This document shows positions 8,351-55,050 of a stretch of 57,247 nucleotides of DNA, in pieces. This stretch comes from Acidobacteriota bacterium (GTDB lineage: Bacteria > Acidobacteriota > Thermoanaerobaculia > Multivoradales > UBA5704). Location of the stretch: NCBI GenBank assembly GCA_040005235.1, contig JBDTZG010000034.1, positions 1 through 57,247 on the forward strand, written 5' to 3'. The notes beneath the pieces are model-generated. The model made no database searches, was not told where the DNA came from, and saw nothing but the letters and a program-made list of their open reading frames with translations. Every line of letters starts with the position of its first letter. Position 1 is the first letter of the stretch. Both the position numbers and the translations under genes were made by a program.

Positions 8351-8383
8351 GAAGTAGGGGGATCGGGAGTCCCGGCGATGGCT

Positions 8384-8644
8384 TTACCTGCCGAGCCCCA
8401 GCTCCTCAATCGGTCCGAAATCCAAGATTTTCTCCATCAGGCAGCGCAGCTCCTCGACTGAGTCAATTGCCTGGACTCGCTCCCGAACGTTGGGGGAGAT
8501 TTCCCCGAATCGCTTCCCCAGCATACGGAGTACGTATTGGCGGTGCTGTTCCACGAACGCCATTTCGAGCCCAATCGCAAAGCCCTTTTCGTAACCTCTC
8601 TGCTCACACTCCGCTGCCATCCGCTCGCCCCAGGTCAGCTTCAT
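8384..8644 (-). CDS. Small protein resembling the C-terminal (DUF4351-like) part of Rpn/YhgA-like proteins
   Basis: MKLTWGERM...GYEKG...LRMLGKRFGEISPNVRERVQAIDSVEEL...EELGL, with a GGAGG RBS upstream. Confidence 0.65.
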   Translation of the reverse strand: MKLTWGERMAAECEQRGYEKGFAIGLEMAFVEQHRQYVLRMLGKRFGEISPNVRERVQAIDSVEELRCLMEKILDFGPIEELGLGR

Positions 8645-8717
8645 TTGCCTCCCTTCCTCTGTTTGGGCCGCTTTTGCCCGTGAACACCGCGGGAGGTCGG
8701 CCCTTGAAGCACTGTTC

Positions 8718-9887
8718 CTAAGGTCGGAGCCAGACTATGTGGTGATCAGTCTGGTCGAATTTTGGAGTGCGCTCTTTTCCTTTCAAGCCTGTCACCTCTA
8801 TGAGGCCCGAATTTGTCCACTCCTCGAGCCAAGATTTCAGATCGGATTCCCAAACCAGGGGTGAGCTCAGGGCGATCTCCCAAGCGTCGCTGTAGGCGAT
8901 TCTCCTCCTTTCCCTGAGCGCGCGCTGTACACTCACCTTAGCCTTTCCGAGATAGTGCATCCTGAGCTTATTGTAGTAGATACTTTCGTTAGTCTGGAGG
9001 ATGCCCTGGTCTGCGAATAAGTCTCCCATACCAGTGCTAGCTTCACGCTTTCGAGCTCTCGCGTCGGCTCGAAGCGATTCCATCTTTGCCATCGCCTTCT
9101 TCTCGATCTCTTTAAAGACTCTAACGCCTGTGCGGTGTCGAGTCAGGTAGATCAAATGAAAATGAGTTCTGGCTTTCTCAGGATGAATCACGATAGCCGT
9201 GCGTGCGAAGGCGAAGCGTCCTGCCTCTCTTACTCGGTCTGCGTAAATCCCCACTAAAGTGTCGTCACGTTCGTCGCCATGAAGCCCTTCAAACCATTCA
9301 CGATAGCCGGCAGACCCAAATAGTTGCGCGAAACTCGACTGCGTCTCGCCCTGCTCGACGAATCTGCGGATGAAGCTTGTCATGAAGTTGATTAGGACTT
9401 CGCCCGGACTCACCCGCAGTAGAGGTGAAATCGTATCCAGTGAAAAGCCTGTCCAGCCAGTAGGGTCAATGAAGAAAAACGGAAAAGTGTTTGGTCCTCC
9501 CTGCTTTACGAACTGGAGGATTGCGTCAATAGATTCCTCGAATCTTTTGTTCTCGGTTTTGATCTCCGCATCTCCCACCCGGGCGGCGAAGGCCTCCAAC
9601 TCTCGGTATGCTCGTGGATCCTTCTCAAGAAAAAAACACCGGATCTGCCTCTTGTTGCCGAGTCGATCATGAGTTCCTTGAGCCTTTCTCAACTCGCTTA
9701 ACGCTATAGAAAACGAGCTGTCTTCGTGATCAGCCGATCGGTCCTGCCACGGCCCGGAAAAGCAGTCAACATAGGTGATCGATTCAAATCTTTTGTAGAT
9801 GATGTGCGCGAATCGTTCCAGATAGTTCTTTAAGATCAGATGCTTGACGAGAGTCTGTTCGCGTCCGACGTACCCTTCCTCTTTCAT
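8718..9887 (-). CDS. tcmP: Three-Cys-motif partner protein TcmP (methyltransferase-like fold)
   Basis: QTLVKHLILKNYL, YVDCFSGP, FFFIDPTGW and EVLINFM motifs. Adjacent to DUF5131. Confidence 0.85.
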   Translation of the reverse strand: MKEEGYVGREQTLVKHLILKNYLERFAHIIYKRFESITYVDCFSGPWQDRSADHEDSSFSIALSELRKAQGTHDRLGNKRQIRCFFLEKDPRAYRELEAFAARVGDAEIKTENKRFEESIDAILQFVKQGGPNTFPFFFIDPTGWTGFSLDTISPLLRVSPGEVLINFMTSFIRRFVEQGETQSSFAQLFGSAGYREWFEGLHGDERDDTLVGIYADRVREAGRFAFARTAIVIHPEKARTHFHLIYLTRHRTGVRVFKEIEKKAMAKMESLRADARARKREASTGMGDLFADQGILQTNESIYYNKLRMHYLGKAKVSVQRALRERRRIAYSDAWEIALSSPLVWESDLKSWLEEWTNSGLIEVTGLKGKERTPKFDQTDHHIVWLRP

Positions 9888-9896
9888 TCGTGGCTC

Positions 9897-10703
9897 TCAT
9901 ATAAAGGTCATGGCGCTTTCTGCGACTTCCCGGAGCGCGTCAGGCCATGATGGTGAGTCTGCAACCACTGTTCGCTTCAAAGGCTTCGGGAACTCGTCGT
10001 AGGTTCGACCTTGGAGAATTCTGCCGGTCTTCGACTTCTGACGGCCGCCCCATTGTTTGAAAAAGAAGGGCACTTTGGCGTGTCGGCACTGTTCAAGTAC
10101 TTCGAGGATCCACTCTTCCTTAACCGGCCGCGCCTTCGCGCCGCTTTCTCCACCAACGATCACCCAATCGATCCCTGTTAAGTCGAATGGTCCAAGCGCT
10201 TCAAGGAGAGGCTCGACCGACAAGAATTTCAATTTTGCAGGAGCATTTCTTAGGTGATCGACTCGAGGGAGTCCCTGTTTCTGATTCTCGACGCTGACTC
10301 CCCACCAAACGTGAGGAAGTTGGGCGGCAAATCGGAGTTTGGATGTCAGTAGCGAGCTGAGGCGCTCGGATCTCTTGGTCAGCACTTGATAGGTATGCCA
10401 ATGCGCGAGCTGCATGACACGGGCTACGGACACAATGTACTCATCCGGCACTCTTTCGTGAAAGAGGTCGCTCATCGAGTTCACGAAAATCTTGCGGGGT
10501 CGCTTCCAGAGCAGTGGTTGGCTGAGCTTCGTAGGAACCAGTCGCAGATCAAAGCCTTGCTCGTAGGGATGACCGGGAACGCCACGGAATCTCTCGGCAA
10601 ATGTTTCCGCATAGCAAAATGCGCAGCCGGCGCTGACTTTCGTACAGCCCCGCACAGGATTCCAGGTTGCTTCAGTCCATTCAATCGAAGAGTTCTCGCT
10701 CAT
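9897..10703 (-). CDS. DUF5131 (phage Gp37/Gp68-like) three-Cys protein
   Basis: SIEWTEATWNPVRGCTKVSAGCAFCYAE, FVNSMSDLFHE, WVIVGGESG and PFFFKQWGG. Confidence 0.93.
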   Translation of the reverse strand: MSENSSIEWTEATWNPVRGCTKVSAGCAFCYAETFAERFRGVPGHPYEQGFDLRLVPTKLSQPLLWKRPRKIFVNSMSDLFHERVPDEYIVSVARVMQLAHWHTYQVLTKRSERLSSLLTSKLRFAAQLPHVWWGVSVENQKQGLPRVDHLRNAPAKLKFLSVEPLLEALGPFDLTGIDWVIVGGESGAKARPVKEEWILEVLEQCRHAKVPFFFKQWGGRQKSKTGRILQGRTYDEFPKPLKRTVVADSPSWPDALREVAESAMTFI

Positions 10704-10796: not shown

Positions 10797-11810
10797 CTAC
10801 TCTCCCACTTCGGCCAGCCGGTCGATCAGGTCGACGACCCGGTTCGAATAGCCCCACTCATTGTCATACCAGGCGACGACTTTGACGAAACCGTCTCCCT
10901 TCGCTTGGGTGGAGAGGGCGTCGAAGACGGAGGAGTGCGGGTTGCCGATGATGTCGGAGGAGACGAGCGGCACCTCGCTGTACTCGACGATGCGGAGGAA
11001 CGGTCCCTCGGCTGCCGAGCGGATGGCGGCGTTCACCTCGGATACGTTCGGCTTGGCATTCAGGCGGCAGACCAAGTCGATCGTCGAGCCGTCGGGGACC
11101 GGCACGCGCATCGCCAGGCCGTCCAGCTTGCCTTTTAGCTTCGGCAGCACCTGGCCCACCGCGCGCGCGGCGCCGGTAGTCGTCGGGATGATGTTCTGAG
11201 CCGCCGCCCGGCTGCGGCGGAAATCCTTGTGCGGCACGTCGGCGAGACGCTGGTCGTTGGTATAGGCATGGACCGTCGTCAGGAAGCCTTCGACGATGCC
11301 GAAAGAATCGTCGAGGATCTTTGCGATCGGTGCCAGGCAGTTGGTGGTGCACGAGGCGTTCGAGACTATCTTGTGCGCCGGGAGAAGCGTGTCGTCGTTC
11401 ACCCCGATGACGATCGTGGCGTCGATCTCGTCCTTGGCCGGTACCGTCAAGATCACCTTCTTCGCCCCGGCTGCGAGGTGCTTTTCGAGCTTCTCCCGCT
11501 TGGTGAACACACCGGAGGCTTCAATCACCAGATCGGCGCCCAGCGCGCCCCAGGGGATCAGCGCCGGATCGCGTTCCGCGGTCATCGCGATCTTCCGGTC
11601 GTCGACGTAGAGGAAATCCGCGTCGCTGCGCACGGTGCGCGGAAAGGTCCGCATCAGCGAGTCGTATTTCAACAGATAGGCGAGCTGTTCGTTTTCGTAG
11701 AGGTCGTTGATCGCCACCACTTCGAGATCGGGGCGCTCGGCGAGGATGCGAAACACGCTCCGGCCGATGCGGCCGAAACCGTTGATGCCGATTCGGGTCT
11801 TGGTGCTCAT
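10797..11810 (-). CDS. gap: Type I glyceraldehyde-3-phosphate dehydrogenase
   Basis: INGFGRIGR, SNASCTTNCLAP and WYDNEWGYSNRVVDL. Confidence 0.95.
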   Translation of the reverse strand: MSTKTRIGINGFGRIGRSVFRILAERPDLEVVAINDLYENEQLAYLLKYDSLMRTFPRTVRSDADFLYVDDRKIAMTAERDPALIPWGALGADLVIEASGVFTKREKLEKHLAAGAKKVILTVPAKDEIDATIVIGVNDDTLLPAHKIVSNASCTTNCLAPIAKILDDSFGIVEGFLTTVHAYTNDQRLADVPHKDFRRSRAAAQNIIPTTTGAARAVGQVLPKLKGKLDGLAMRVPVPDGSTIDLVCRLNAKPNVSEVNAAIRSAAEGPFLRIVEYSEVPLVSSDIIGNPHSSVFDALSTQAKGDGFVKVVAWYDNEWGYSNRVVDLIDRLAEVGE

Positions 11811-42256: not shown

Positions 42257-43159
42257 ATGATCGAGCTGGAAGGCCTCACCAAGACCTATGCCGACGGCAC
42301 GCAGGCGCTCCGGGGGGTGGATCTGCGTCTGGACCGGGGGATGGTGGGCCTTTTGGGTCCGAACGGGGCGGGGAAGACGACGTTTCTGTCGATCCTGGTC
42401 TTGGCGCTGGAGCCGAGCGCGGGGCGGCGAGTGTATGACGGGCTCGATGCCGCGCGCGCCCGGTCGCGGCCGGCGATCCGGCGGTCGATCGGCTACCTGC
42501 CGCAGGACTACCGGCCGCTCGCAGGGTTGACCGGGCGGGAGTACCTGCTCCATTGCGCCCGGCTGCGCGGGGTGCCGCTCTCTCGCCGGGCGCTCGAAGA
42601 GCGGACGCGGGAGCTGCTCTCGGCGGTGGGGCTCGCCGAGGCGGCCGACCGGCGGGCGATCGAGTACTCGGGCGGCATGCAGCGGCGGCTCGGGGTGGCG
42701 CAGGCAATCATCCATTCGCCGCGGCTCTTGGTGGTGGACGAGCCGACGGCGGGGCTCGACCCCGAGGAGCGGATTCGTTTTCGCACACTGATCGGCGAGG
42801 TGGCCGAGCAGACGGCCGTCCTGCTTTCGACCCACATCGTCGAAGACGTCGAGGCGACCTGCCCGCGGCTGGTGGTGATCGGCCAAGGGCGCCTGCTGTA
42901 CGACGGCACGCCCACCGAGCTGCTGCGCGGCGCGTCCGGTCATCTCTTCCGGTTTCCGGCCGGAGAGCCGCTGCCGCCGGGAGCCGTCGAGGTCACCTAC
43001 CGGGCCGACCGGGACGGGGCGGTCGAGCGGGTGGTTTGGAGTGAGACGCCGATCCCCGGTGCTCCCCCGCGCCCGGCCGGGCTCGAAGAGGCGTATGGCG
43101 CGTTCCTCGCGTTGCGCGGCGTGGCGGCCGCCGGTCCCCAGGAGGGGGCTGCGGCATGA
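42257..43159 (+). CDS. ABC transporter ATP-binding protein (ABC-2/DrrA-like)
   Basis: Walker A GPNGAGKTT, signature YSGGMQRR, Walker B LLVVDEPTAGLD and H-loop STH. Confidence 0.95.
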   Translation: MIELEGLTKTYADGTQALRGVDLRLDRGMVGLLGPNGAGKTTFLSILVLALEPSAGRRVYDGLDAARARSRPAIRRSIGYLPQDYRPLAGLTGREYLLHCARLRGVPLSRRALEERTRELLSAVGLAEAADRRAIEYSGGMQRRLGVAQAIIHSPRLLVVDEPTAGLDPEERIRFRTLIGEVAEQTAVLLSTHIVEDVEATCPRLVVIGQGRLLYDGTPTELLRGASGHLFRFPAGEPLPPGAVEVTYRADRDGAVERVVWSETPIPGAPPRPAGLEEAYGAFLALRGVAAAGPQEGAAA

Positions 43160-45978
43160 GGCTCCTCGCAGCGTTCATCCGCCATGAGCTGCGCATCGAG
43201 CGGCGTTCGCTCCGTTTTCGCGCCTTCGCGGTGGGCTACGTCCTGCTCGGATGTGTGCCGGCGGCGGCGATTCACCTGCGCCGCGAACGGCTCGATTACG
43301 TGATCGGCGGTGCCACCTATGCGAGCGCGACGTTGACCTGGCTGCCGCTTTTGTCGGTGCTGCTGGCCGCCCTCCTTTCGATGGATGGGATCAGCCGCGA
43401 ACGCGCCACCGGCGCCTGGACCACGGCGACTCTTTCCGGGGTCACCAACGTGGGGTATCTGCTGCGCCGTTTCGTGGCGCTCTTGACCCTCCTGCTGCCT
43501 TTGACCGCAATCCCCCTGCTTGTCGCGGCGGGCCTCGCGGTGGCCGACGTCGGCGGTGCCGGAGTCGGCGCCGCCTCGAACCTGGCGCCGTTTTACGGCC
43601 CTTGGCTGCTGCACGTCGTGCCGTGGACGGTGGCGGCCTCCGCGCTCGCCCTCGGCCTCGGGACGATCGGCGGCAACGCCGTCGGTTCGTTTCTGCTCGC
43701 GGCTCTGCTGTTCGGCGTCGTTCCGGTGGCGGGAAACGAGGCACTGAACCGGTTCGGGATGCGGTTCGATTCCCCCCTCGCCGGCCTGGACCTGCTACCA
43801 GCGCGGTGGACCGTGATCCTCCTCGCCGCTTCTCTTAAGGCCCAGGACGACCGGTGGACCTGGATGTTCCCTCTGCCGGAGACCGAGGCGGGCTTCGATC
43901 TCGGATCCGCGGCCGAGCAGAACCTGGCCGAAGGGCTTCAGTTCGGCGCATCGGCAGCGGCGGCGCTTGGGCTCGCCGTGCTGTTCTTGCGGCGCACCCG
44001 GCCGGACGTGCGGCCCCAGCGCATCCGGCCGGATCATCCGCTGCGCAACTTCCTGGTCGCGTTCGGCCGCCTGCGCGAGCAGTACACGCCGGACCCCAAA
44101 CCGGCGCCCGCCGATCTGGTCGCCCTCGCCTGCGCCCTCGGTCTGGCGGCGGGAGCCGTGGGACTCGAAGGTGCGCGCGCCGTCGGCTACGAGCGACTGG
44201 CCGAGCGGCGCTATCGGGCGGAAACGGGCGGCAAGCCGGCGCCGATGGCGGTCGCGGTGGTGCCGGAGACCTGGCGCATCGACGGGAGGTTCGAGACCTC
44301 GGGCACGGTCCAGGTCGAGGTTCGCGGCACGTTTAAAAACGGCGGTCGCGTACCGCAGAAGCACTTGGCCTTCTCCCTCAATCCCGATCTGGCAGTGACT
44401 GCCGCAACCGCCGACCGGGGCCGCGTCACCGTCGGCCGTGAGTGGGACCGGCTGGCGATCGAGGTCGATCCGCCGATCCCGCCGGGCGCCCGGCGGGAGC
44501 TTCGCCTTCGTCTTGCCGGTCTCCCGAGGGCGAACCATTTCAGTCTTCCGCAGGGGGGAGATGTCGCCTCCTTCGCGCGCGCCTTTGAGAAAAACCGCAA
44601 CGCGCGGCTCGGCCACGACCGCGCGGACCTTTCGCGCAGCTACCGGGTTCCGGCGATTTCGGGGCTGCGGGTGGATCTTTCGGCCGACGACCTGACCCCC
44701 GTTCCTCGCTACACGACCTGGGCGCAGAAGGGCGACGGCGGAGTCGCCGAAGAGGTCTATTTTCCTGTCGCGCGAGTTGAGATCGCCCTGACCGTACCCC
44801 GCGACCTGCTGGTCGCGGACAGCTGCGGCGGACTCTCCGATCCGGCCGGCCGGACCCGCGGCCGGCTGGACAGCCGGTGCAGCCTCTCGCTTTCCGAGCT
44901 GACGGTCCGCGGCGGGCGCCAGCGACTGCTGGCCCAAAGCACCCAGGACGGCGTGGCGGTGGGAGTCTTCCCGGCCCATCGCGCCGCGGGCGAGCTGCAC
45001 CTGGGGCTCTTCGCCGGCAGCTCGAAGTTGATGGAGGAAGCTTGGCCCGCCCAGGGCGACGATGGCGGAGGCGCTTCGGGAAAGAGCGGCCTGGGCCGCC
45101 TGGTGATTCTGGAGTGGCCGGGCGAAGGGGTGCACGATCGCCAGCATCTGAACCTGATTTCCGGCCGCTATCGCGATCCGTACGAGTCTTGGGTCACGGT
45201 GATCGGCAACCTCGCGTTCTTGGGGGAGACCGATTTGATCGCTACCGCGCCGCTGCCGCCCGAGCGGCTGGCGGCGGAGATCGTCTCCTCGCGCCTGGCG
45301 AGAAGGCGCCGGTTCGCTCCCGACGAGTCGTTGTTCTTCCGCCAGCTTCTTCGGACCCTTGTCCTCGAACGGCTCGGTCTCGGGGCGCAGACCGGCGCGG
45401 TGGTGGGACCGCTGTCGCCGCAGCAGATGGCGTCGGTGCGGACGCCCGCCGTGCATCCCGAGTCCTACGGCTACTGGAACAGCCGCTTCCCTTCGCTGAT
45501 CGCGGCGCTCGGCCGCCGGGCGGGCGCGGAGGCGCTCAGGTCGTCGGTGGAGGAATTGCTCGCCCCCGGTCCCGACCACGCCCAAACCCCGGCGACCTTC
45601 GAGGAGTTTGCGTCGATCTTGAAGCGGCGGAGCGAGCGCGACGTCGAGCCGATGCTCCGCGACTTCTTTCTCGCCGGCAAACTGCCGGAGCTGGTGCTCG
45701 AAGAGGTGAGCTTCGAACCCGCAGGAGGGGGCTGGCGGGTGACCGGCAAGGTCCACAACCTCGCCGACGGCGAGGCGATCTGCCGCCTTGTCCTCACCAC
45801 CGAGCTGGGGCCGGTCGAATTCGAAATCCGGATCGGCACGAACGAGACCACGCCTTTCGCATTTGCGACCGCTCATCGGCCGCAGGGAGTCTTTCTCGAT
45901 CCCGATCAGGAGTGCCATCGCATGGTGCGGATGGGCCTGCCGCGCGACCGGGTCTATCTCCAAGGGGTCCGGCGGTGA
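43156..45978 (+). CDS. ABC-2-type permease fused to a large extracytoplasmic M1-aminopeptidase-like domain lacking HEXXH
   Basis: The N-terminal ~330 aa are multi-TM with ISRERATGAW. The soluble region has FSLNPDLAV and a C-terminal PQGVFLDPD. LAAEIVSSR sits where HEXXH is expected. Confidence 0.65.
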   Translation: MRLLAAFIRHELRIERRSLRFRAFAVGYVLLGCVPAAAIHLRRERLDYVIGGATYASATLTWLPLLSVLLAALLSMDGISRERATGAWTTATLSGVTNVGYLLRRFVALLTLLLPLTAIPLLVAAGLAVADVGGAGVGAASNLAPFYGPWLLHVVPWTVAASALALGLGTIGGNAVGSFLLAALLFGVVPVAGNEALNRFGMRFDSPLAGLDLLPARWTVILLAASLKAQDDRWTWMFPLPETEAGFDLGSAAEQNLAEGLQFGASAAAALGLAVLFLRRTRPDVRPQRIRPDHPLRNFLVAFGRLREQYTPDPKPAPADLVALACALGLAAGAVGLEGARAVGYERLAERRYRAETGGKPAPMAVAVVPETWRIDGRFETSGTVQVEVRGTFKNGGRVPQKHLAFSLNPDLAVTAATADRGRVTVGREWDRLAIEVDPPIPPGARRELRLRLAGLPRANHFSLPQGGDVASFARAFEKNRNARLGHDRADLSRSYRVPAISGLRVDLSADDLTPVPRYTTWAQKGDGGVAEEVYFPVARVEIALTVPRDLLVADSCGGLSDPAGRTRGRLDSRCSLSLSELTVRGGRQRLLAQSTQDGVAVGVFPAHRAAGELHLGLFAGSSKLMEEAWPAQGDDGGGASGKSGLGRLVILEWPGEGVHDRQHLNLISGRYRDPYESWVTVIGNLAFLGETDLIATAPLPPERLAAEIVSSRLARRRRFAPDESLFFRQLLRTLVLERLGLGAQTGAVVGPLSPQQMASVRTPAVHPESYGYWNSRFPSLIAALGRRAGAEALRSSVEELLAPGPDHAQTPATFEEFASILKRRSERDVEPMLRDFFLAGKLPELVLEEVSFEPAGGGWRVTGKVHNLADGEAICRLVLTTELGPVEFEIRIGTNETTPFAFATAHRPQGVFLDPDQECHRMVRMGLPRDRVYLQGVRR

Positions 45979-46721
45979 CGGGGGCGCTTCGGAAGCCTCT
46001 CTCGCTGCCGCCTGGGCTTGGCCGGTGGACGGACCGCGTGAGGCGCCTGCTGCGGACGACGCGCCTGTCGCTGGAGCTGCTGCTCGGACGGCGCCTGCTG
46101 GTGTTTGCCGCGGTCGATTTCCTGGCGGTCTTGGCGGCGCTGTTCTCGATGTTGCTCGGCGCGGGCGACGAGCCGGCGGCGGTCTGGTCGGGAATCCTGC
46201 TGCCGCCGTTCCTGCTGCTCGGCCTGCCGGCTCTTTCCGGCGTCGTCGAGGTCGAACGGCGCGCGGGCTGCCTCGACCTCGCGCTCACCACGCCCGCCGC
46301 GGAAGGGTACTTCCTGCGCCGCGTGGCCTCGGTGTGCGGGGTTCTCTGCGCTCAGGGCTGGCTGCTGATGGGCATCGACTGGCTGCACGAAGGCGGAAAG
46401 GGATTTCCGCTGCTCCCGGTCCTGGTGCAGGTGGCGATCCACTCTCTCTTCCTGGGGGCGGTGGCACTCTTCTGGGCGGTGCGGCTCAAGAGCGGCGGGG
46501 CGGTCTGGCTGGCGTCGATGGGGACCGTCCTCGCCTTCTCCCGCTGGTTTTTCCTGAACCCGGTCCCCGACCGGCATCACGGGGTGTGGAACGGCTGGCT
46601 GCCCGGCCCCGAAGAATCGCTTTCCTGGTTGGGCGGCGCCCTCGTGCTCGGCGCCGCCACGCTGATCCTTTTTCTTTATGCCCGCCGGCGCCTGCGCCGG
46701 CCGGAGACGCTCGTTTCGTGA
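45975..46721 (+). CDS. ABC-2-permease-like membrane protein
   Basis: GTGA overlap with the upstream gene, about 6 TMs, and VEVERRAGCLDLALTTP resembling the ERxxGTLE..L.TP permease motif. Confidence 0.7.
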   Translation: MTGALRKPLSLPPGLGRWTDRVRRLLRTTRLSLELLLGRRLLVFAAVDFLAVLAALFSMLLGAGDEPAAVWSGILLPPFLLLGLPALSGVVEVERRAGCLDLALTTPAAEGYFLRRVASVCGVLCAQGWLLMGIDWLHEGGKGFPLLPVLVQVAIHSLFLGAVALFWAVRLKSGGAVWLASMGTVLAFSRWFFLNPVPDRHHGVWNGWLPGPEESLSWLGGALVLGAATLILFLYARRRLRRPETLVS

Positions 46722-46732
46722 TGGAGATCGCC

Positions 46733-47875
46733 ATGAAGACCCAGGCGCCGAAGATTCGCCTCGTGCTGTTGCCCGCCGTTCTGCTGATGCTCGGGGCCTG
46801 CGCCCAGGCGCCCGCTCCGCCGCCGGAAGAGGCGCCCGCGGCGCCCGTGCGGCTGGAGGTGGCCAAGCGCGAGACCTTCCAACCGGAGCTGATGGTGCTC
46901 GGCACCGTCCAGCCGGGAGGGATGGCCGAGGTGACCGTACCGACCGCAGGGAGAGTGCTCTATCCGGATCGGTTCGCGGCCGGCCTGATCGCGGGCGCCG
47001 ACGTGCGCGCTGGGGAGGTGCTCGCGCGGATTTCGTTCGGCGACGCCGACGCGGATCTGGCCGAGGCACGGCTGCGGGTCAAGGGAGCGGAATCGGAGGT
47101 CGCCCGCCACCAGCGGGCGTTCGACGCCGGGGTCGAGGCCGCCGTGATTCTCGCCTCGTTCAAAGCCGATCTGGAGATTGCCCGAAGTCGCCTCGCCGCT
47201 TCCGAGAACCGGCTCGGCCGGCTGTCGCTGCGGGCGCCGCTCTCTGGACGGCTGATCGTCGATTCCCGGATCGCGCCGCAGTCCGAGGTGGCGGTGGGTA
47301 TGGTCCTCGGACGGATCGCCGCCGCCGGGGCGCTATCGGTCGAGGGCCGGGCCGCAGCGGCGGATCGCGACCGACTGCACGCGGGGCTCGCCGTGCGGTT
47401 CGGAAGCGAGGGACACGAGGCGGGAGCGGGAACGGTGCGCGAGGTGGCACCGGTCGTCGATGCCGGGGGGACGATAAAGCTAATCGTTGCCGTCGGCGAT
47501 CCCGCCGGCCTGCCGGGTCCCGGCGAAGGAGTGGAGGTGCGGGTGGCGCTCGACCGCCACGAGCAGGCGCTCACCGTCCCCGAGGAGGCGTTGGTGGTGG
47601 CCGAGAGCGGCAGCGCGCTGTTCGTCGCCCAGAGGAGCCAAGGCCATCTGATCGCGCATCGGGAAGCGGTCGAGACGGGGGCGCGCGGCGGCGGCCGGGT
47701 CGAGATCCTGCGAGGCTTGAGCCCCGGCGACAAGGTGGTGGTGGGCGGCGCGGCGCTCCTGGCGGAAGGCGATCCGATCGCGGCGATTGAAGGGGGCGAA
47801 GGGAGCGAAGGGGGCGAATCGAGCGCAGCGGGCGCGGCGACCCCGGGCGGAGAAGCGGGAGAGGCGGGAAAATGA
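46733..47875 (+). CDS. RND periplasmic adaptor (membrane fusion protein), lipoprotein
   Basis: Lipobox LMLGAC, GTVQP, LRAPLSG, LTVPEEAL and VEILRGLSPGDKVV. Alternative start at 46721. Confidence 0.9.
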   Translation: MKTQAPKIRLVLLPAVLLMLGACAQAPAPPPEEAPAAPVRLEVAKRETFQPELMVLGTVQPGGMAEVTVPTAGRVLYPDRFAAGLIAGADVRAGEVLARISFGDADADLAEARLRVKGAESEVARHQRAFDAGVEAAVILASFKADLEIARSRLAASENRLGRLSLRAPLSGRLIVDSRIAPQSEVAVGMVLGRIAAAGALSVEGRAAAADRDRLHAGLAVRFGSEGHEAGAGTVREVAPVVDAGGTIKLIVAVGDPAGLPGPGEGVEVRVALDRHEQALTVPEEALVVAESGSALFVAQRSQGHLIAHREAVETGARGGGRVEILRGLSPGDKVVVGGAALLAEGDPIAAIEGGEGSEGGESSAAGAATPGGEAGEAGK

Positions 47876-50800
47876 TTCGCCGCGCCGTCTCCCGGCCGAT
47901 CTCGACGCTGATCGGCGCCTTCACCCTGGTGGTCTTAGGCGCCGTCTCGCTTCTCCGGCTGCCGGTCTCGCTGCTGCCGGCGCTCGAACGGCCGCGGCTC
48001 GACGTCACGGTCACGGTGACCGGCCGCTCGCGCGAGGAGGTGCTCGACCGCTTCACCCGGCCGTTGGAGCGGCGGCTCGCCGCGATCTCGGGGGTCACCT
48101 CGGTGCGCACGACGACGGGCGACGGCTTCGTCCGCGCCCGGGTCGAAAGCGAGTGGCAGACCGATGCCGACCGGCTGCGGATCGAGACCGAGCGGCGGCT
48201 GGCCGACCTCGACCCGACAGGTGAGGCGACGCTCGCGGTCGAAATGACGGCCGGCGATCCGGAGCCGATCATCGAGGTCGCGGTCCTGGGCGGTCCATCG
48301 GAGGGGGGCGGAGCCGCGCGGACCGATTTCGCCAAGAAGCTCCTGGTGCCCGAGCTGGCGCGGATCGAAGGGGCGGGCCGGGTGGAGACGGTGGGGCTCA
48401 CCCCGCGCCACGCGGTGATCTACCCCCAGGCGGCTGCGCTCACCGCCCGCGGCCTGACCGCCGCCGACCTGGTGGCCCGGCTGCGCACCGTGGGGATCGA
48501 CGCCGCCGCCGGCCGGGCGCGCTCGGGCGCCTCGGTCAGGCCGCTGCTGGTTAGGGAAGAGGCGCTGTCGCTCGATGCGCTCCGGGCGCTGCGCATTCCG
48601 GGACCGCGGGGAGAAAGCGTGCTCGGCGACGTCGCGCGGATCGATCTCGAAGAGGTCCAGGATGGAACGTTCTTCCGCCTCGCCCGCCAGGACGGCGCCC
48701 TGGTGCGGGTATTCCGCGCGCCGGAGGCGAACGCCGTCGCCCTGGCGGCGGCGGTGCGGGCGCGCACCGCGGAGCTTTCCGCCCGCGCGGGCTCCGGATT
48801 GAAGCTCGCGGTGGTCGACGACCGCAGCCGCGAGGTGCTCGGGGCGCTCGGCGAGTTGGGCCTCGGCGCGCTGTTCGGCCTGCTGCTTGGGACCGCAGTG
48901 CTGCGCCTGATCCTGGGAAGCTGGCGGCCGACGCTCGGCCTCGCGGTGGTGGTACCCGCTTCGCTGCTCACCGCGTTCGTCGGGTTTTCGCTCTGGGGCG
49001 CGGCGCTCGACGTGGTGTCGCTCGCGGGCCTCGCGCTCGCCGCCGGCATGCTGGTCGACAGCTCGATCGTGGTGCTCGAAGCGATCGAGACCGCCCGATC
49101 CCAGGGTGCGCCCGAGCCGGCGATCGCCGGGGCGCGCCAGATCGCCCTGCCGGTGATCGCGAGCTTCTGCACCACCGCGGTGGTCTTCCTACCTCTGATC
49201 TACCTGCGCGGCCTCGCCCGCGCGTTCTTCGGCGTCCAGGCCTTCGCCATCGTCACCTCGCTCGCCGCTTCGCTCCTCTTCTCCCTCACGGTGACGCCCG
49301 TCCTCGCCGGGAATCGAAGGGAGCGCAGGGAGCGCAAGGAGCGCGGCGGGCTGGAGGAGAACACCGCCGGCCGTAGCGTCGGGCGAGGGCGGTACCTGAG
49401 TCTGCTCGATCGGGTGCTCGCGCGGCCCTCTTTGGTGGTCGTTGCGGCGCTCGCCGTCGCCGCGCTCGCCCTGCTGGCCTTTGCCCGTCTGCCGCGCGAG
49501 CTGGTACCTGAGGCGGTTTCGGCGGATCTCGTCGTCCGTTGGCGCCTCGCGCCGGATCTCACTCCGGAAGCGGCGCGGAAGCTGGGGGTGGCGGTCGAAG
49601 AGCTGGCGGCGCGCACGGTGGCTGTGGCGGAGCCCGGCGAAAAGACGCCGGAACGGACGGCGCTCCAGGCGCTCCAACTGCTGCCGCCCGAGCCGGGCGA
49701 GGACCGCGACGAGACCGGCCGGCTCTTCCTCACCTTTCCCGATGTCGCAAGCGCCGCCCGTGAGCGCCCTCGCCTCGCGGCGGCGCTCGCCCGGCTGCCC
49801 GACGTCGAGACCTGGATCGAGCCCCGCCCGAGCGCTTTCGTCGACGCGATCCAGAGCGCCGGCCGGCGGCTCGAAGTGGTCGCGACCGCCGCCGATCCCG
49901 CCCGGGCCGAGGCGCTCGCCGCGCGCGCCGCCACAGCCTTGGGCGCGACGTCCAAGGAGCGGCGGCGGGCGGCTTCAAGCGACCGGCCGCAGGCCGCCGT
50001 TCTGCTTTCGTGGGATCTCGCCCGCCTCGCCGCCCTGGGTCTGGACCGGGCGGCGGTGGAAACCCAGGTGCGGCAGAGTTTGGGGGATCAGGTCGCCGGG
50101 CGCGTGCATCTCGAAGGGGTCGAGCCGGAGATCCTGGTGCGCGCCGTCGAGCCGGCCGATCCGCGCCTGCTGCCGGTGAGCCTTCCCGCCTCGGCCGAGC
50201 TCGGCGGTTCCGGCGGGGTGGTGCCGCTCGCCGCCCTCGCGCGGCTGGTGCCGGGCGCCCGACCTTCGTATCTCGAACGGCAGGACGGCCGGCCCGCGGC
50301 GCGGCGGGCGTTCGAATCGGTGCATGGCGACCCGGAGGCGGCGCTCGCGCGGCTGAACCAGACGACGAAACGCGGCGCGGGCGAGGAGATCTCGCTCGCC
50401 GGCCAGGCGCTGGAGCTGCGCCGCGCTTTCGGACAGCTTCGGCTCGCGCTCCTGCTCTCGTTCGCCCTGGTCTTCTTGACCGTCGCCGCGCTCTACGAGT
50501 CGTTCCGCATTCCGCTGGTCGTCATGGTCACCGTGCCGGTCGCGCTGGGCGGCGCCTTGGGCCTGCTGCTGCTCGCCGGCCAGAGCCTCAACATTCTTTC
50601 GTTCCTGGGGTTGATCCTGCTCGGCGGAATCGTCGCGAACAACGCGATCGTCCTGGTCCACCGGATCGAAGAAAACCGCCGGGCGGTTCCCATGGCTCCG
50701 ATGGCTCTGGACGCCGCCGCCCCGGCCGAGTCGCCGAGGGATCGAATCACCGCCGCGATTCGCCGCGCCGCCGCCGAGCGCTACCGGCCGATCGTGATGA

Positions 50801-51030
50801 CCACCCTCTGCACGCTCGCCGGCATGCTGCCTTTGGCGGCGCTCGGCGGCCCAGGGGTCGAGCTGCGGCGGTCGCTGGCATTGGCCGTGATGGGCGGGAC
50901 GCTCACGTCGGTGTTCGCTTCTCTCCTTTTGGTGCCGGTGCTTTATCGGGCTCTCGCCGGGAGCCGGGCGGAGGCAAGCTCCGCCCCTACGGCTACGGCA
51001 GGAACGACATTCAAGGCGGAGCGTTCCTAG
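47872..51030 (+). CDS. RND efflux permease subunit (AcrB/HAE-like)
   Basis: LPVSLLP, GMLVDSSIVVLE (TM4), TTAVVFLP, LYESFRIPLVVMVTVP, GIVANNAIVLV and RYRPIVMTT. Confidence 0.92.
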   Translation: MIRRAVSRPISTLIGAFTLVVLGAVSLLRLPVSLLPALERPRLDVTVTVTGRSREEVLDRFTRPLERRLAAISGVTSVRTTTGDGFVRARVESEWQTDADRLRIETERRLADLDPTGEATLAVEMTAGDPEPIIEVAVLGGPSEGGGAARTDFAKKLLVPELARIEGAGRVETVGLTPRHAVIYPQAAALTARGLTAADLVARLRTVGIDAAAGRARSGASVRPLLVREEALSLDALRALRIPGPRGESVLGDVARIDLEEVQDGTFFRLARQDGALVRVFRAPEANAVALAAAVRARTAELSARAGSGLKLAVVDDRSREVLGALGELGLGALFGLLLGTAVLRLILGSWRPTLGLAVVVPASLLTAFVGFSLWGAALDVVSLAGLALAAGMLVDSSIVVLEAIETARSQGAPEPAIAGARQIALPVIASFCTTAVVFLPLIYLRGLARAFFGVQAFAIVTSLAASLLFSLTVTPVLAGNRRERRERKERGGLEENTAGRSVGRGRYLSLLDRVLARPSLVVVAALAVAALALLAFARLPRELVPEAVSADLVVRWRLAPDLTPEAARKLGVAVEELAARTVAVAEPGEKTPERTALQALQLLPPEPGEDRDETGRLFLTFPDVASAARERPRLAAALARLPDVETWIEPRPSAFVDAIQSAGRRLEVVATAADPARAEALAARAATALGATSKERRRAASSDRPQAAVLLSWDLARLAALGLDRAAVETQVRQSLGDQVAGRVHLEGVEPEILVRAVEPADPRLLPVSLPASAELGGSGGVVPLAALARLVPGARPSYLERQDGRPAARRAFESVHGDPEAALARLNQTTKRGAGEEISLAGQALELRRAFGQLRLALLLSFALVFLTVAALYESFRIPLVVMVTVPVALGGALGLLLLAGQSLNILSFLGLILLGGIVANNAIVLVHRIEENRRAVPMAPMALDAAAPAESPRDRITAAIRRAAAERYRPIVMTTLCTLAGMLPLAALGGPGVELRRSLALAVMGGTLTSVFASLLLVPVLYRALAGSRAEASSAPTATAGTTFKAERS

Positions 51031-54000
51031 ATGAGGGCGATCTCCCGCCTGGTGGCGACCTCCGGGCTGCTGCTCCTGGGTGCCGTCGCGTTCGAACGAC
51101 TGCCGCTCGACTATCTGCCGAAGCGGAGCTTTCCGGAGCTGACGGTCGCCTTGACGCTTCCCGAAGCGCGGGAGCCGGCGGTCGTCGCGCGCGATTGGGT
51201 GGAGGAGATCGAAGCCGCGATCCGCTCGCTGGGGCGCGTCCGCGGTACGGCGGGCGAGGTGCGCTCGGACGGCGCCGAGCTGCGCGTCCGTTTCGCCCCC
51301 GGCACCGATCCGGAGAGCAAGGCGGCGCGCCTGGGGTCCGAGCTGACGGCACTGCGCCGCCGGCTGCCGCGCGGCGCGGTTCTTTCGGTCGATCCGGCGT
51401 CTCAGGCGGAGGGGAATCTGCTGGCGCTCGTCTGGCTCTCGGGGGTGACCTCGGATGCCGCCGCCGAGGCGGCGGCCGAGGAGATGCGCGGCGTCCCCGG
51501 CGTGCGCTCGGTGGATGCCCTGGGGGTTCGCCGCGAAGAGCTGCGGGTGGAGCTGGCCGCCGGGACCCTCGATCCGGCTGGCGCCGCCGCGCGGGTGCGG
51601 TCGAAGCTCGACAGCGCGCTCCGGCAGAGCGAGCTGGGCCACGAAATCCAGGGCGACCGCCGGATGCCGGTGATCGTCGCCGCGACCGCTCCCGAGAGCC
51701 TCGGCCAGGTGCCGATACCGCTCCGCGAAAAGAACGGCTCTTTAGGGAGCGGACTCCTTCCCGTTGCCCCTCTGGCGACCGTGGCCACGGTCCGGTCCCG
51801 CTGGCCCGATCCGCTGTTCCGCGTCCGCTACCAGGGCAAGCCGGCGCGCGCGCTGTTCGTCTGGCGGGCCGAAGGCGCGCAGGTGCTCGCCGCCGACCGC
51901 GCCCTGCGGCAAAAGGTCGAACAGATGTCGAGCCGGCCGGGCGGCGTGAAGGGCACCGTCGACTGGAGCGAGGCGGAACCGCTGCGCATCCTTTTCGGGC
52001 ACCTGGGGCTGGGCCTGCTGATCGCGGCGCTCGCCGCCGCCGCCCTGGGCTGGCGCCTGGGCGGCCGGCTCGGAGGTCGTCTGGGAGCCATCACCTTCGG
52101 CCTGGCACTGCCGGCGGGTCTTGCCGCCGCGGCCAACGCTCTTTGGCTCGCGGGCGTTCCTCTCTATGTCACCACGCTGGTCGCCGCGGTGCTCGGCGCC
52201 ACCGCGGCGCTGCCCGCAGCGGCTTTGCGCCTCGGCCGGATCGACGGGCGGGGATTCTGGATTCTCGCGGCCACCACCGCGGCGACCGCCGCCGCGGTGC
52301 CCGTAGCGGTCGGACTGGCCGGCCAGGAGCTGGGGCCGCTGTTGGCCGAGCCCGCTCGCGCTTTTCTTCTCTCGACCGCGGCGGCGGTCCTCGCCGCGGC
52401 CCTCCTGCCGGCTTCTCGTCGATCCGGGTCCGGCGGCGCTGTCTCTCCCACCCGTTCCGGTCGCCTGGGTTCGGCGGCGAACGCCTGGTCGGCCGGCTTG
52501 GCCGGGCTTCAGCGCCGGGCACTGCGCGATCCCGGCACGTCGGTTTTGATGCTCTCGACCGCCTGCGGCCTGGCCGCGGCGCTGTTCGGGCCGGCGCTCG
52601 TGCCCCGGCCGGGCGACCTCTCTCCCGACGGCGGCACCTTCGACATCCGCTTGAACCTGCCCGACGGCGCCACCCTGGCGGAGACCGAGACCCAGGTGCG
52701 TGGGGTGGAAGAGCAGCTCGCCAAGACCGAGGAGGTCGAGCGCTTCTGGAGCAGCTCGCGCGCCGGCCGCGGGCTCGTGAGGGTGGAGGTACGTCCACAA
52801 GATCGGCGCCCCGACCGCCTCGCCTGGCTCGCCACGAACATCCGCTACCGGATTCCGGGAGCGGCTGCGGCGCGGATCGAAACCGGCGCGGGGGCTGCCG
52901 GGGGCGGCGCTTTCGCCGTCGATCTCGAAGACCACGCGAAGGCCGACGAGGAGGGGCTGTTCTATCGCATGGTCCTCTCCGGCGGCGACCTCGATCTGTT
53001 GACCACCGCCTACCGGCGCATCCTCTACCGCCTGGCCGAGTTCCAGATACGGCCGCGCTCGATCACCGGCTGGGAAGATCCGTCCGTGCTGCTCACCCTG
53101 CGGCCCAGGCCCGGGGCGGTGGGACGAGACGTCTCCGAGATCGCGACCGCTTTTGCCCAAACGAGCGGCGGCCCGGTGCCGCTGCCGCTCCCTCCCGGAC
53201 CGGGAGGCGTCTCCCGCTCGCTGGTGGTGGTGCCGGCCGGAGCGCCGGCCGACCCCGATCGCGCCGTGCCGCTGGTGGCGAATCTGATGGAGCGCCCGCT
53301 TCGCCTGGGGGATCGGACGCTCGTGCCGGCCGCAACGCTCGCGCTCTCCCAGGATTCGGTCATCCCCAGGGTGAGCCGGCAGTCCGGCCGCTTCGTGGTG
53401 CCGATCGAGTTTCGCCTGCATCAAAGCGCCGAAGAGGTGCGGGTCGACCGGCGGAAGGAGATCGACCGGGGCCTAGCCCATCTTCGGCTGCCGGCCGGAG
53501 TCGATCTCGAACGGCCAGCCCTCTCCCTCCTCTTCTGGCAGCCGGATCGCCTGCGACTGATCGGCCTGGCGCTCGCCGTGCCGCTGCTCCTATTTGCCGT
53601 CGCCGCCTGGCGCCTGGGGGGGCTGCTCTCCGCGCTTGTGGCCTTGGTGCCCCTCGCGGCGGGACTGTTCGCCGCGACGCCGCTCGTTGCCGCTTCTCTC
53701 GGTCAGGTCGACGAGCTGACGGTTCTAGCGCTGGTCGCGAGCCTTTGCCTCACCCTGCCGCTGTCCGCCGAGGTGGCGGAATCGGCCGAAGCCGGCCGCG
53801 TGAGCCGCGGCCCTGAGGCGGCCGGACCGGCCGGCGCGGGGCAATACCGCGGCCTGCGCCGAGAGACTCCGTGGCTCGCGGCCTCTTTGATCCCCACCTC
53901 TCTGGCGCTCGCCCTGCCCACGATCGGCGCCGATTTCATCCGTTGCCGATGGGTGGTACCGCTGCGCGCCGCCGCCCTGTGCGGCGCGGTGGCCTTGGGC

Positions 54001-55050
54001 GTAACCCTGCTCGTCGTCCCGCCCCTACGCCTGGCCGTCGCCCGTTGGCAGGCCCGCGATCCGGAAGCGATCCGCCGCCGCCGGCAGCCGCCCGAGTGGA
54101 GTGCCGAAGGTGCCGTCGGTCTGCCGACGCTCGCCGTGCGCAGCCTGACCAAGAAGTACGCTTCGGGGCACAAGGCTCTCTCCGGCGTGAGCTTCGAGCT
54201 GACTCCGGGAATCACCGGCCTGCTCGGGCCGAACGGCGCGGGGAAGACCACCCTGCTCCGCCTGCTGACCGGCCTGCTCTCGCCCAGCCGCGGCTCGGTC
54301 TCGTTTCGCGGCGTGCCGGTGACCGCTGACGATCTCGCCGAGTACCGGCTGCGGATCGGCTTCCTGCCGCAGGAGTTCAACGCCTATCCCGATTTCACCG
54401 CCGAGCAGTTTCTCGACCATTGGGCGATGGAACGCGGCCTCGACAACTCCTCCGAGCGGGCGGCCGAGATCGGCAAGCTCCTCGCCGCCGTGGGGTTGGC
54501 CGAGCATGCGGGGCGCAAGGTGCGCGATTTCTCCGGCGGCATGCGGCAAAGGGTGGGGATCGCCCGCTGCCTCCTCGGCGCGCCGCCGATCCTGATCGTC
54601 GACGAGCCCACGACCGGGCTCGACATCGAATCCCGCGGCAGGTTCCGCCAAATCCTGCTCGAACAGGCGGCGGACCGTATTGTTCTCTTCTCGACCCACA
54701 TCGCGAGCGACATCGAAGCCGCCGCTTCGCGCATCCTCCTGATCCACCGCGGCCGGCTGCGCTTCGACGGCCGGCCCGAAGATCTCCTCGCACAAGCCCA
54801 GGGCCGGGTCTTCACCGCCCTGGTCTCCGACGCCGAATTGGCCGCTTTCAGTCACCGCTACAGAGTCACCGCTCGCCTGCGCCGCCTGGAAGGCCTGGAA
54901 GTCCGAGCCGTCGCCCGGCCGGGAGACGGAATCGAAGGCGACCTCACCGAGCCGAACCTCGAAGAGGCCTACCTCGCCGAGATCGAGCGTGTGGATGCCG
55001 CGGAAGGGCGCGAGCGGCGGGCGGAGAGTTTTTCGTTCCTGGGGGGGTGA
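51031..55050 (+). CDS. Degenerate RND permease fused to a C-terminal ABC ATPase domain
   Basis: RND-like N-terminus (LPLDYLPKRSFPELTV, LNLPDGATLAET). One open frame continues into an NBD from about 54121 with GPNGAGKTT, FSGGMRQR, ILIVDEPTTGLD and STH. Confidence 0.85.
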   Translation: MRAISRLVATSGLLLLGAVAFERLPLDYLPKRSFPELTVALTLPEAREPAVVARDWVEEIEAAIRSLGRVRGTAGEVRSDGAELRVRFAPGTDPESKAARLGSELTALRRRLPRGAVLSVDPASQAEGNLLALVWLSGVTSDAAAEAAAEEMRGVPGVRSVDALGVRREELRVELAAGTLDPAGAAARVRSKLDSALRQSELGHEIQGDRRMPVIVAATAPESLGQVPIPLREKNGSLGSGLLPVAPLATVATVRSRWPDPLFRVRYQGKPARALFVWRAEGAQVLAADRALRQKVEQMSSRPGGVKGTVDWSEAEPLRILFGHLGLGLLIAALAAAALGWRLGGRLGGRLGAITFGLALPAGLAAAANALWLAGVPLYVTTLVAAVLGATAALPAAALRLGRIDGRGFWILAATTAATAAAVPVAVGLAGQELGPLLAEPARAFLLSTAAAVLAAALLPASRRSGSGGAVSPTRSGRLGSAANAWSAGLAGLQRRALRDPGTSVLMLSTACGLAAALFGPALVPRPGDLSPDGGTFDIRLNLPDGATLAETETQVRGVEEQLAKTEEVERFWSSSRAGRGLVRVEVRPQDRRPDRLAWLATNIRYRIPGAAAARIETGAGAAGGGAFAVDLEDHAKADEEGLFYRMVLSGGDLDLLTTAYRRILYRLAEFQIRPRSITGWEDPSVLLTLRPRPGAVGRDVSEIATAFAQTSGGPVPLPLPPGPGGVSRSLVVVPAGAPADPDRAVPLVANLMERPLRLGDRTLVPAATLALSQDSVIPRVSRQSGRFVVPIEFRLHQSAEEVRVDRRKEIDRGLAHLRLPAGVDLERPALSLLFWQPDRLRLIGLALAVPLLLFAVAAWRLGGLLSALVALVPLAAGLFAATPLVAASLGQVDELTVLALVASLCLTLPLSAEVAESAEAGRVSRGPEAAGPAGAGQYRGLRRETPWLAASLIPTSLALALPTIGADFIRCRWVVPLRAAALCGAVALGVTLLVVPPLRLAVARWQARDPEAIRRRRQPPEWSAEGAVGLPTLAVRSLTKKYASGHKALSGVSFELTPGITGLLGPNGAGKTTLLRLLTGLLSPSRGSVSFRGVPVTADDLAEYRLRIGFLPQEFNAYPDFTAEQFLDHWAMERGLDNSSERAAEIGKLLAAVGLAEHAGRKVRDFSGGMRQRVGIARCLLGAPPILIVDEPTTGLDIESRGRFRQILLEQAADRIVLFSTHIASDIEAAASRILLIHRGRLRFDGRPEDLLAQAQGRVFTALVSDAELAAFSHRYRVTARLRRLEGLEVRAVARPGDGIEGDLTEPNLEEAYLAEIERVDAAEGRERRAESFSFLGG

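Follow-up and report, generated by a model that had tools for sequence, protein, structure and literature searches.

A conserved six-gene cassette of Acidobacteriota in which an RND pump protein is fused to an ABC ATPase

ATP-binding cassette (ABC) transporters and resistance–nodulation–division (RND) pumps are normally taught as alternatives. Among the described systems closest to the one considered here, the RND proteins MdtB and MdtC combine at a stoichiometry of 2:1, and YbhGFSR is an ABC exporter with an adaptor of the membrane fusion protein (MFP) type. The available text of PMC8277102 classes tripartite efflux systems by their inner-membrane engine, which is ABC, RND or major facilitator superfamily (MFS), and records that the mdtABC operon holds two transporter genes; in the available text of PMC5673888 and PMC5985334, the MacB fold consists of an N-terminal nucleotide-binding domain (NBD), four transmembrane (TM) helices and a periplasmic domain. 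Here we describe a cassette of six genes, g1–g6, from a 57,247-nucleotide stretch of DNA (the window) of an Acidobacteriota bacterium of the class Thermoanaerobaculia (assembly GCA_040005235.1, contig JBDTZG010000034.1). Two engines of different energy type lie here in one operon and partly in one polypeptide, and the arrangement is conserved across the phylum. An earlier note on this DNA, made from its letters alone, had proposed a hybrid ABC–RND export machine and knew of no characterised transporter of such architecture; in the published literature, judged from listings and abstracts, no description of an RND–ABC fusion was found.

An RND protein fused to an ABC ATPase

The genes of the cassette, and the parts into which two of their products divide, are as follows.

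42257-43159, + strand: g1, 300 amino acids (aa); free ABC ATPase (NBD1), DrrA/GldA-like
43156-45978, + strand: g2, 940 aa; predicted ABC-2 permease with M1-fold domain
43156..44230, + strand: g2 N-terminal part, about residues 1-358; predicted ABC-2 (NosY-like) permease, transmembrane domain 1 (TMD1)
44233..45978, + strand: g2 C-terminal part, about residues 360-940; M1-aminopeptidase fold, presumed periplasmic
45975-46721, + strand: g3, 248 aa from a GTG start (227 aa from GTG 46038); predicted small ABC-2 permease
46721-47875, + strand: g4, 384 aa; RND-type periplasmic adaptor (MFP) with a lipoprotein-like signal
47872-51030, + strand: g5, 1052 aa; full RND permease (RND1)
51031-55050, + strand: g6, 1339 aa; diverged RND body (RND2) and ABC ATPase (NBD2)
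51031..54117, + strand: g6 residues 1 to about 1029; RND2 body including a linker of about 35 residues
54118..55050, + strand: g6 residues about 1030-1339; NBD2 with C-terminal extension

Direct reading of the open reading frames and their junctions bears out six same-strand genes that overlap or abut, with ATGA, GTGA, TGATG, ATGA and an abutting TAG–ATG in order from g1/g2 to g5/g6. Of the six start codons, that of g3 is the least secure: one Atlas record places it at the in-frame GTG 46038, and the overlap of g2 and g3 therefore hinges on the start codon chosen. The first 21 codons from the upstream GTG (45975-46037) are conserved at the protein level in loci L001 and L002 and are absent or different in L005.

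The product of g6 joins two domains of different transporter classes. Pfam recognises ACR_tran at 71 bits over residues 2-308 only, and ABC_tran at 111 bits over residues 1050-1195. Comparison of the g6 family profile (44 relatives) with that of the g5/RND1 family gave an hhalign value of 99.94%, with an E-value of 5e-37 over 921 columns, and the hydropathy of the body reveals 12 TM helices, with large loops after the first and the seventh. We conclude from the profile match and the RND pattern of hydropathy that the body is complete but diverged. Full-length homology to the RND superfamily, with 12 TM helices and two large periplasmic loops, is found in both g5 and g6. A linker of about 35 residues leads from the last RND helix to the NBD, in which all 44 family members share Walker A K1072, Q1114, the signature S1168-G1170, D1191 and H1223, and at least 90% of them the Walker B glutamate, E1192.

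A word-indexed search with g6 returned 546 hits. The best 120 of these are nearly all 1270-1400 aa long and carry both PF00873 and PF00005; among them identity to g6 falls to 41%, and the named organisms belong to Thermoanaerobaculia or Acidobacteriota. Both domains at this fused length recur in over 100 independent clusters, drawn from NCBI, ENA, JGI and Logan. In a set of 401 genomes of Acidobacteriota, full-length stop-free matches occur in at least four genomes among the matches listed (G000, G176, G216 and G070), a lower bound, since 594 matches lie outside them; the unpublished genomes G152, G024 and G049 enter this tally only, and no claim is based on them. Among 151 genomes sampled from the class, NBD matches in frames of 1269-1451 aa are listed for nine. 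That the 1339-aa frame results from an assembly or frameshift error joining two genes is hardly credible: no support for it was found, more than 100 independent clusters share both the fused length and the domains, and the matches in G176, G216 and G070 are free of stops. At L004:10001-13862 the g6 orthologue aligns in two pieces (query residues 2-739 and 743-1322) that lie 10 bases apart, probably because this one metagenome-assembled genome contains a sequencing error or a local frameshift.

The gene order is conserved with the fusion. In a species-level genome collection a full-length relative of g6 is present at five loci; the four that were taken with 10 kb of upstream flank all hold the six genes in the same order (4/4), and the fifth, a contig of 5.5 kb, holds g5-g6. 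All six genes are likewise found at L032 and L033 (from G216 and G070), and g2-g6 at L031 (from G176), where g1 lies just beyond the edge of the fetched stretch. Overall, the cassette is kept in 7/7 Thermoanaerobaculia loci with enough flank, and g1 orthologues open it in L001, L002, L004, L005, L032 and L033. The recurrence of six genes in identical order in related loci tells us that the arrangement is not due to chance. A conserved ACR_tran–ABC_tran fusion with the same synteny, for which the earlier note had suggested a search, is therefore present, and the contrary pattern that it named, RND and NBD always separate and unlinked to the permeases, did not occur. Loci L006-L013 of the genome scan were rejected as relatives, being ordinary ATPases without RND, and L035, the best match to the permease–NBD fusion P0204 among the 151 genomes, turned out to be the C-terminal fragment of a g6 orthologue. 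In a Saprospiraceae-centred set around G513, 0/81 genomes matched at E <= 1e-150; with the C-terminal 688 residues as query at E <= 1e-60, 12/61 genomes matched, all through free ATPases of about 300 aa. At these thresholds the genomes searched yielded no such fusion.

Elsewhere in the phylum, many genomes from other families have an NBD match within a frame of 1580-2010 aa and, 9-13 kb apart from it, a free ATPase. We sampled this deeper family at five loci from five other Acidobacteriota families. In four of the five the order is ATPase, ABC-2 permease, MFP, RND and a large fused protein; the fifth has a divergent ATPase. The permease, of 1118-1180 aa, has ABC2_membrane_2/3, M1-like and Golvesin_C matches, and in one wider-family permease Peptidase_M1 is matched in Pfam with 35 bits. 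The fused protein, of about 1571-1917 aa, consists of a full ACR_tran domain (492-611 bits), a stretch of some 270 residues that holds extra TM helices, and ABC_tran. In four of the five loci the next gene downstream encodes a g3-like six-TM protein of 237-245 aa, which aligns with g3 over 220 columns (hhalign 97.1%, E 7e-11). The extra TM region between RND and NBD was tried as the counterpart of g3 and rejected (hhalign 0.15%), the counterpart being the separate downstream gene. Compared with the deeper family, the form in the window is without the Golvesin_C end and without the TM region between RND2 and the NBD. Since g3 has been relocated and all six parts are present in both forms, the parts have stayed linked despite the new gene order. 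The deeper family represents an older form of the operon.

The deeper fused proteins share a conserved 'VRxLxKxYGxPGP' stretch that resembles strand 1 of an NBD and is separated from Walker A by some 190 residues with several TM helices. The position of this strand-like stretch before the TM region implies that the ATPase may carry a membrane insertion. The region lies at:

L027:3611-4411, - strand: 'VRxLxKxYGxPGP' region
L029:13349-14158: 'VRxLxKxYGxPGP' region
L026:14127-14948: 'VRxLxKxYGxPGP' region
L028:7289-8009, - strand: 'VRxLxKxYGxPGP' region
L030:13262-14074: 'VRxLxKxYGxPGP' region

Components of the ABC and RND modules

All six gene assignments made by the earlier note held up, those of g1, g4, g5 and g6 through Pfam and NCBIfam and the rest through orthologues, folds and hhalign. 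The free ATPase, g1, matches ABC_tran (PF00005) with 92 bits, and its top NCBIfam match is drrA at 189 bits, which is under the cut-off of that model. Walker A, Q-loop, signature, Walker B glutamate and H-loop are all seen in its translation, and it shares 44-45% identity with the NBD of g6. At the level of sequence motifs, both ATPases carry a complete catalytic set.

The adaptor, g4, matches the TIGR01730 model RND_mfp with 119.1 bits against a cut-off of 94.9, over model positions 1-320 of 322, and HlyD_3 with 32.6 bits; its N-terminus is a hydrophobic stretch ending in LGAC. The RND permease encoded by g5 matches ACR_tran (PF00873) with 480 bits over model positions 1-1020 of 1021, and its best sequence matches in the PDB are AdeB-type pumps, MdtB, MexB and AcrB. 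Repeats of the outer-membrane efflux protein family OEP exceed the cut-off elsewhere in the same genome, with 21 matches in 11 frames and none on the window's contig, C88. Since these frames are all on other contigs, an outer channel would act in trans, and it is possible that one of this kind is supplied to the RND pump.

The proton relay of AcrB comprises D407, D408, K940, R971 and T978 in the available text of PMC8277102. The corresponding positions were examined by aligning Escherichia coli AcrB with 24 RND sequences from the fetched loci, and the result was compared with phmmer alignments to solved pumps. The g5 protein keeps the equivalents of D407 (D396), R971 (R972) and T978. In the deeper family, both RND1 and the fused RND2 keep the equivalents of D407, R971 and T978; D408 is replaced by Ser or Asn, and K940 by Asn. 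In the window's subfamily, by contrast with this older form, TM4 of the g6 body is without an acidic residue in 8/8 orthologues, and in 44 g6-family sequences Asp or Glu is never among the four commonest residues in the 20 columns equivalent to TM4. There is no Lys at the K940 position, and only the Arg of a 'YR' motif aligns with R971. Judged by the five relay residues of HAE-1 pumps, therefore, g5 has a partial relay and g6 lacks one. Proton coupling by g5 is accordingly an assumption drawn from its retained Asp and Arg, and RND2 of the window's subfamily is probably unable to translocate protons itself. The fused RND of the deeper family keeps the TM4 Asp and the TM11 Arg, from which it follows that the fusion is older than the loss of the relay. 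The window's subfamily is thus a natural experiment, a fused RND body without the relay aspartate that the older form retains.

Hydropathy and the helices of the AlphaFold2 (AF2) model place six TM helices in the N-terminal part of g2, followed by a seventh that leads outward. Pfam matches of g2 orthologues are to ABC2_membrane_3 in 4/8 (best E 8e-4, falling in the N-terminal part), ABC2_membrane_2 in 2/8 and ABC2_membrane_4 in 2/8. The g2 family aligns with the larger permease of the deeper family over 795 columns (hhalign 99.4%, E 4e-21), and some g2 homologues bear the JGI label 'multi-copper enzyme maturation permease subunit'. The AF2 model of g2 has a predicted local distance difference test score (pLDDT) of 90.4 and a predicted template modelling score (pTM) of 0.87. 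Searched with Foldseek, the C-terminal 600 or so residues of this model find ERAP1, IRAP, ERAP2 and APN as their best matches in the PDB, with E-values from 6e-15, over some 620-650 aligned columns at about 10% sequence identity. From the topology of g2, with six helices, an Arg-rich loop and a seventh helix, the M1-fold domain would be periplasmic. It shares with the M1 zinc aminopeptidases the fold alone, and not the HEXXH-(18)-E zinc site and GXMEN motif: HExxH occurs in just 2/52 and GxMEN in 0/52 g2-family sequences, and in 0/4 wider-family proteins. The domain keeps H608 (52/52), H615 (48/52), E653 (51/52), E691 (52/52) and W630-P631 (52/52), encoded at 44977-45231 of the window, and these conserved residues may form a non-canonical metal or ligand site.

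The AF2 model of g3 (pLDDT 91.5, pTM 0.88) resembles type-V ABC permeases, which make up all of its listed Foldseek matches in the PDB. NosY comes first, with TM-scores of 0.52-0.59, and is followed by ABCG25, PmtCD, ABCG2, CcmB-type proteins and others. The Atlas feature search assigns g3, at 0.97, to an 'ABC-2 type permease' cluster. A g3 profile, searched exhaustively, matches 126 representatives at E <= 0.001; the great majority are free-standing proteins of 220-260 aa, and five are longer. Overall, the type-V fold of g2 and g3 is well supported, although the curated Pfam ABC2_membrane thresholds are not reached, and there is good support for g2 and g3 as ABC-2-type (NosY-like) permeases that would provide TMD1 and TMD2.

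A proposed machine and its rivals

Three relatives, P0204, P0221 and P0242, point to the partner that the fused ATPase serves. In each, a g3-type permease is followed by an ABC NBD in one chain, and these NBDs score 229, 193 and 138 bits, respectively, against the NBD of g6 and 154, 134 and 100 bits against g1; the likeness to the g6 NBD extends into its C-terminal extension. The same lineage of ATPase is joined, then, to RND2 or to a small permease, which is the pattern expected if all three share one complex, and the pattern expected were NBD2 the cognate ATPase of g3, tied to the ABC core. P0246, a 1691-aa protein with a weak match to the g3 profile, was a false positive, an MBG-repeat surface protein. 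In P0162 and P0196 a g3-type permease is fused in frame to an MFP adaptor (HlyD_3), whose lipoprotein signal would turn into a TM helix; these two may be real fusions or read-through in gene calling.

The modelling of NBDs on TMDs that the earlier note had called for yielded a predicted contact between g3 and g6 residues 1025-1339. The median score was 0.54 (runs of 0.54, 0.69 and 0.54) against 0.00 for the best of three controls, with partner pLDDT of at least 80 and at least 71% of contacts shared between runs. When the tool was calibrated, 58 of 80 solved complexes attained its mark, as did 2 of 110 mismatched pairs; those that attained it with a score of 0.60 or under were only 7 of the 80 solved complexes and both of these mismatches.

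On the observed gene content, folds, motifs, fusion and conservation of that fusion we base a proposal in which the physical assembly, the stoichiometry (two g5 to one g6, for example), the hand-over, the substrate, the direction of transport and the coupling of energy are what we infer. The cassette probably encodes a heterodimeric ABC-2 exporter joined by a covalent tether to a heteromeric RND/adaptor pump, whose outer channel would act in trans. The first module would be a heterodimeric type-V ABC transporter made up of NBD1 (g1), NBD2 (the C-terminus of g6), TMD1 (g2) and TMD2 (g3). The second would be an RND pump, with g4 as its adaptor lipoprotein, g5 as its canonical RND permease and the diverged body of g6 as a further RND part; an RND heterotrimer, with the ABC core docked upon it, would be the form of the complex. 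Because NBD2 shares a polypeptide with RND2, the RND assembly would keep the ABC core close to itself. The earlier note had already counted two TMDs and two NBDs, one NBD being tethered to an RND protomer, and this count fits the linked parts, the permease–NBD fusions, the fold of g3 and the non-occurrence of the contrary pattern that the note had named.

In such a machine, ATP hydrolysis by g1 and NBD2 would drive g2/g3, and the substrate would leave the cytoplasm or the inner membrane. The M1-fold pseudo-peptidase domain of g2 would then receive or hold the cargo, as a periplasmic transfer element, and the RND/adaptor part, powered through the proton relay of g5, would hand it to an outer-membrane channel encoded elsewhere. 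It is conceivable, if doubtful, that the coupling goes further and that movements of NBD2 pass through the covalent link into the relay-less RND2, so that ATP and the proton gradient (through g5) drive one rigid assembly. Such a dual-energy pump would pick up its substrate in the cytoplasm or the inner leaflet and deliver it to the exterior with no periplasmic release. Were the modules indeed one machine, they would represent a new route across both membranes and an instance from nature in which an ATPase and a proton-driven pump are energetically coupled; they would also give access to the cargo, which may be something that Acidobacteriota, abundant in soils, secrete or build into their envelope.

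Several observations weigh against the tethered exporter and pump. The cassette holds no TolC-like gene of the OEP family (PF02321), as the earlier note had remarked of the operon; the 11 OEP frames are elsewhere in the genome. With Ser at D408 and Asn at K940, g5 has lost two of the five AcrB relay residues. Placing g5 and g6 within one MdtBC-like heteromeric trimer goes beyond what is seen here, namely the adjacency of two RND paralogues, and that the ABC and RND modules share one substrate is suggested by no direct evidence. Neither g2 nor g3 has a significant Pfam or NCBIfam match of its own, and the Foldseek E-values of g3 lie between 0.03 and 0.8, none reaching 0.001. A metagenome scan with P0204 returned generic ABC ATPases only and no context for the permease–NBD fusions; it was uninformative because its patterns are dominated by NBD motifs. 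With the same query, no full-length permease–NBD fusion was found in the 151 genomes of the class. Finally, complexes of similar permeases and NBDs have already been solved, so that the pass of the g3/NBD2 prediction may reflect likeness only; of the proposed modelling, then, the contact itself was obtained and lends weak support.

One alternative is that of two independent transporters in one operon, with a neutral fusion of neighbouring genes, NBD2 serving the ABC-2 permeases, the RND pump working by itself and no hand-over between the modules. ABC-2 exporters and RND pumps each function alone in other organisms and fusions of neighbours occur, the g3–MFP fusions P0162 and P0196 resembling such events. 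We regard this as unlikely, however: relatives in the window's subfamily carry the fusion at identities from 95% down to 37-41%, the deeper family has it as well, NBD2 is on the second RND paralogue in 13/13 fetched loci (8 from the window's subfamily and 5 from the deeper family), and the six parts are still linked after rearrangement of the gene order. Moreover, RND2 of the window's subfamily is degenerate yet retained, which suggests that it has a structural role. The same degeneracy lends itself to another explanation, in which g1 and the NBD of g6 act on the membrane domain of RND2, ATP replacing the lost relay, and g2/g3 are accessory or separate. This would accord with a TM4 equivalent devoid of acidic residues (8/8 orthologues; 44 sequences), with the placement of the NBD only about 35 residues past the last RND helix and with two NBDs whose catalytic motifs are complete. 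An ATP-powered RND protein is nevertheless quite improbable, given that the fused RND of the deeper family has both the TM4 Asp and the TM11 Arg and yet carries an NBD, that domains like NBD2 are fused to g3-type permeases in relatives, and that the fold of g2/g3 is the one that normally couples to such NBDs; to our knowledge, no RND protein has coupling helices for an NBD.

We give little credence to a reading in which the ABC part is a mechanotransducer or assembly device, in the manner of MacB, LolCDE, FtsEX or NosDFY, that moves the M1-fold domain so as to gate, load or process RND cargo. The closest structural match of g3 is NosY, a permease that works with a periplasmic partner, and the large domain of g2, with H608, H615 (48/52), E653 (51/52) and E691 conserved and no HEXXH, would suit such a part. 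As against this, it overlaps the tethered exporter in every observed feature, and no test here separates it from export.

The surroundings of the cassette are unrelated to it, with pyruvate kinase upstream (- strand) and ffh downstream. A pattern scan revealed no sigma-70-like promoter within the six-gene block, and its 10 terminator-like sites are in no excess over shuffles (7.3 +/- 3.1). Rfam has no match anywhere in the window. At 8001-10703 the G+C content dips to 0.548, against 0.62-0.74 elsewhere in the window. Within the dip are the gene of a DUF5131 protein (9897-10703, - strand, 321 bits) and a 389-aa open reading frame without any Pfam match (8718-9887, - strand), and GAPDH (10797-11810) lies beside it; the dip may mark a small foreign insertion.

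Comparison with known transporters

The cassette resembles MdtABC–TolC in that an adaptor gene is followed by two adjacent genes for RND paralogues and the outer channel is encoded elsewhere; MdtB is, moreover, among the best PDB sequence matches of g5. It differs in that MdtB/C-type proteins have no ABC domain and the mdtABC operon no ABC-2 genes, whereas here the second paralogue, g6, is without the TM4 aspartate and with an NBD. The relation to AcrB and AdeB (HAE-1, PF00873) rests on the full-length match of g5 and, for the g6 body, on homology over 921 columns and a 12-TM, two-loop topology; unlike these pumps, g5 has Ser at D408 and Asn at K940, and g6 has no TM4 acid and a C-terminal ABC ATPase.

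On the ABC side, the core of NosDFY is likewise of type V and works together with a large periplasmic protein, and NosY tops the structural matches of g3. NosDFY, however, is without an RND or adaptor partner, and its permeases and ATPases are homodimeric; NosD is a separate periplasmic protein with a fold different from that of the M1-like domain of g2. That domain has the fold of the M1 aminopeptidases (ERAP1, IRAP and APN) and differs from them in being without HEXXH and GXMEN and anchored to an ABC-2 permease. MacAB–TolC and YbhGFSR are alike to the cassette in that an ABC transporter is encoded with a periplasmic adaptor for envelope export; here, in contrast, there are ABC-2 permeases, an RND-type adaptor (g4) and two RND proteins. 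Nor is either ATPase of the MacB type (type VII), since one NBD stands free (g1), the other follows an RND body at its C-terminal end (g6), and the permeases are six-TM ABC-2 proteins. The nearest characterised systems thus each match a part of the architecture and none joins RND and ABC, and we conclude that the cassette is a conserved yet unstudied hybrid of two pump types.

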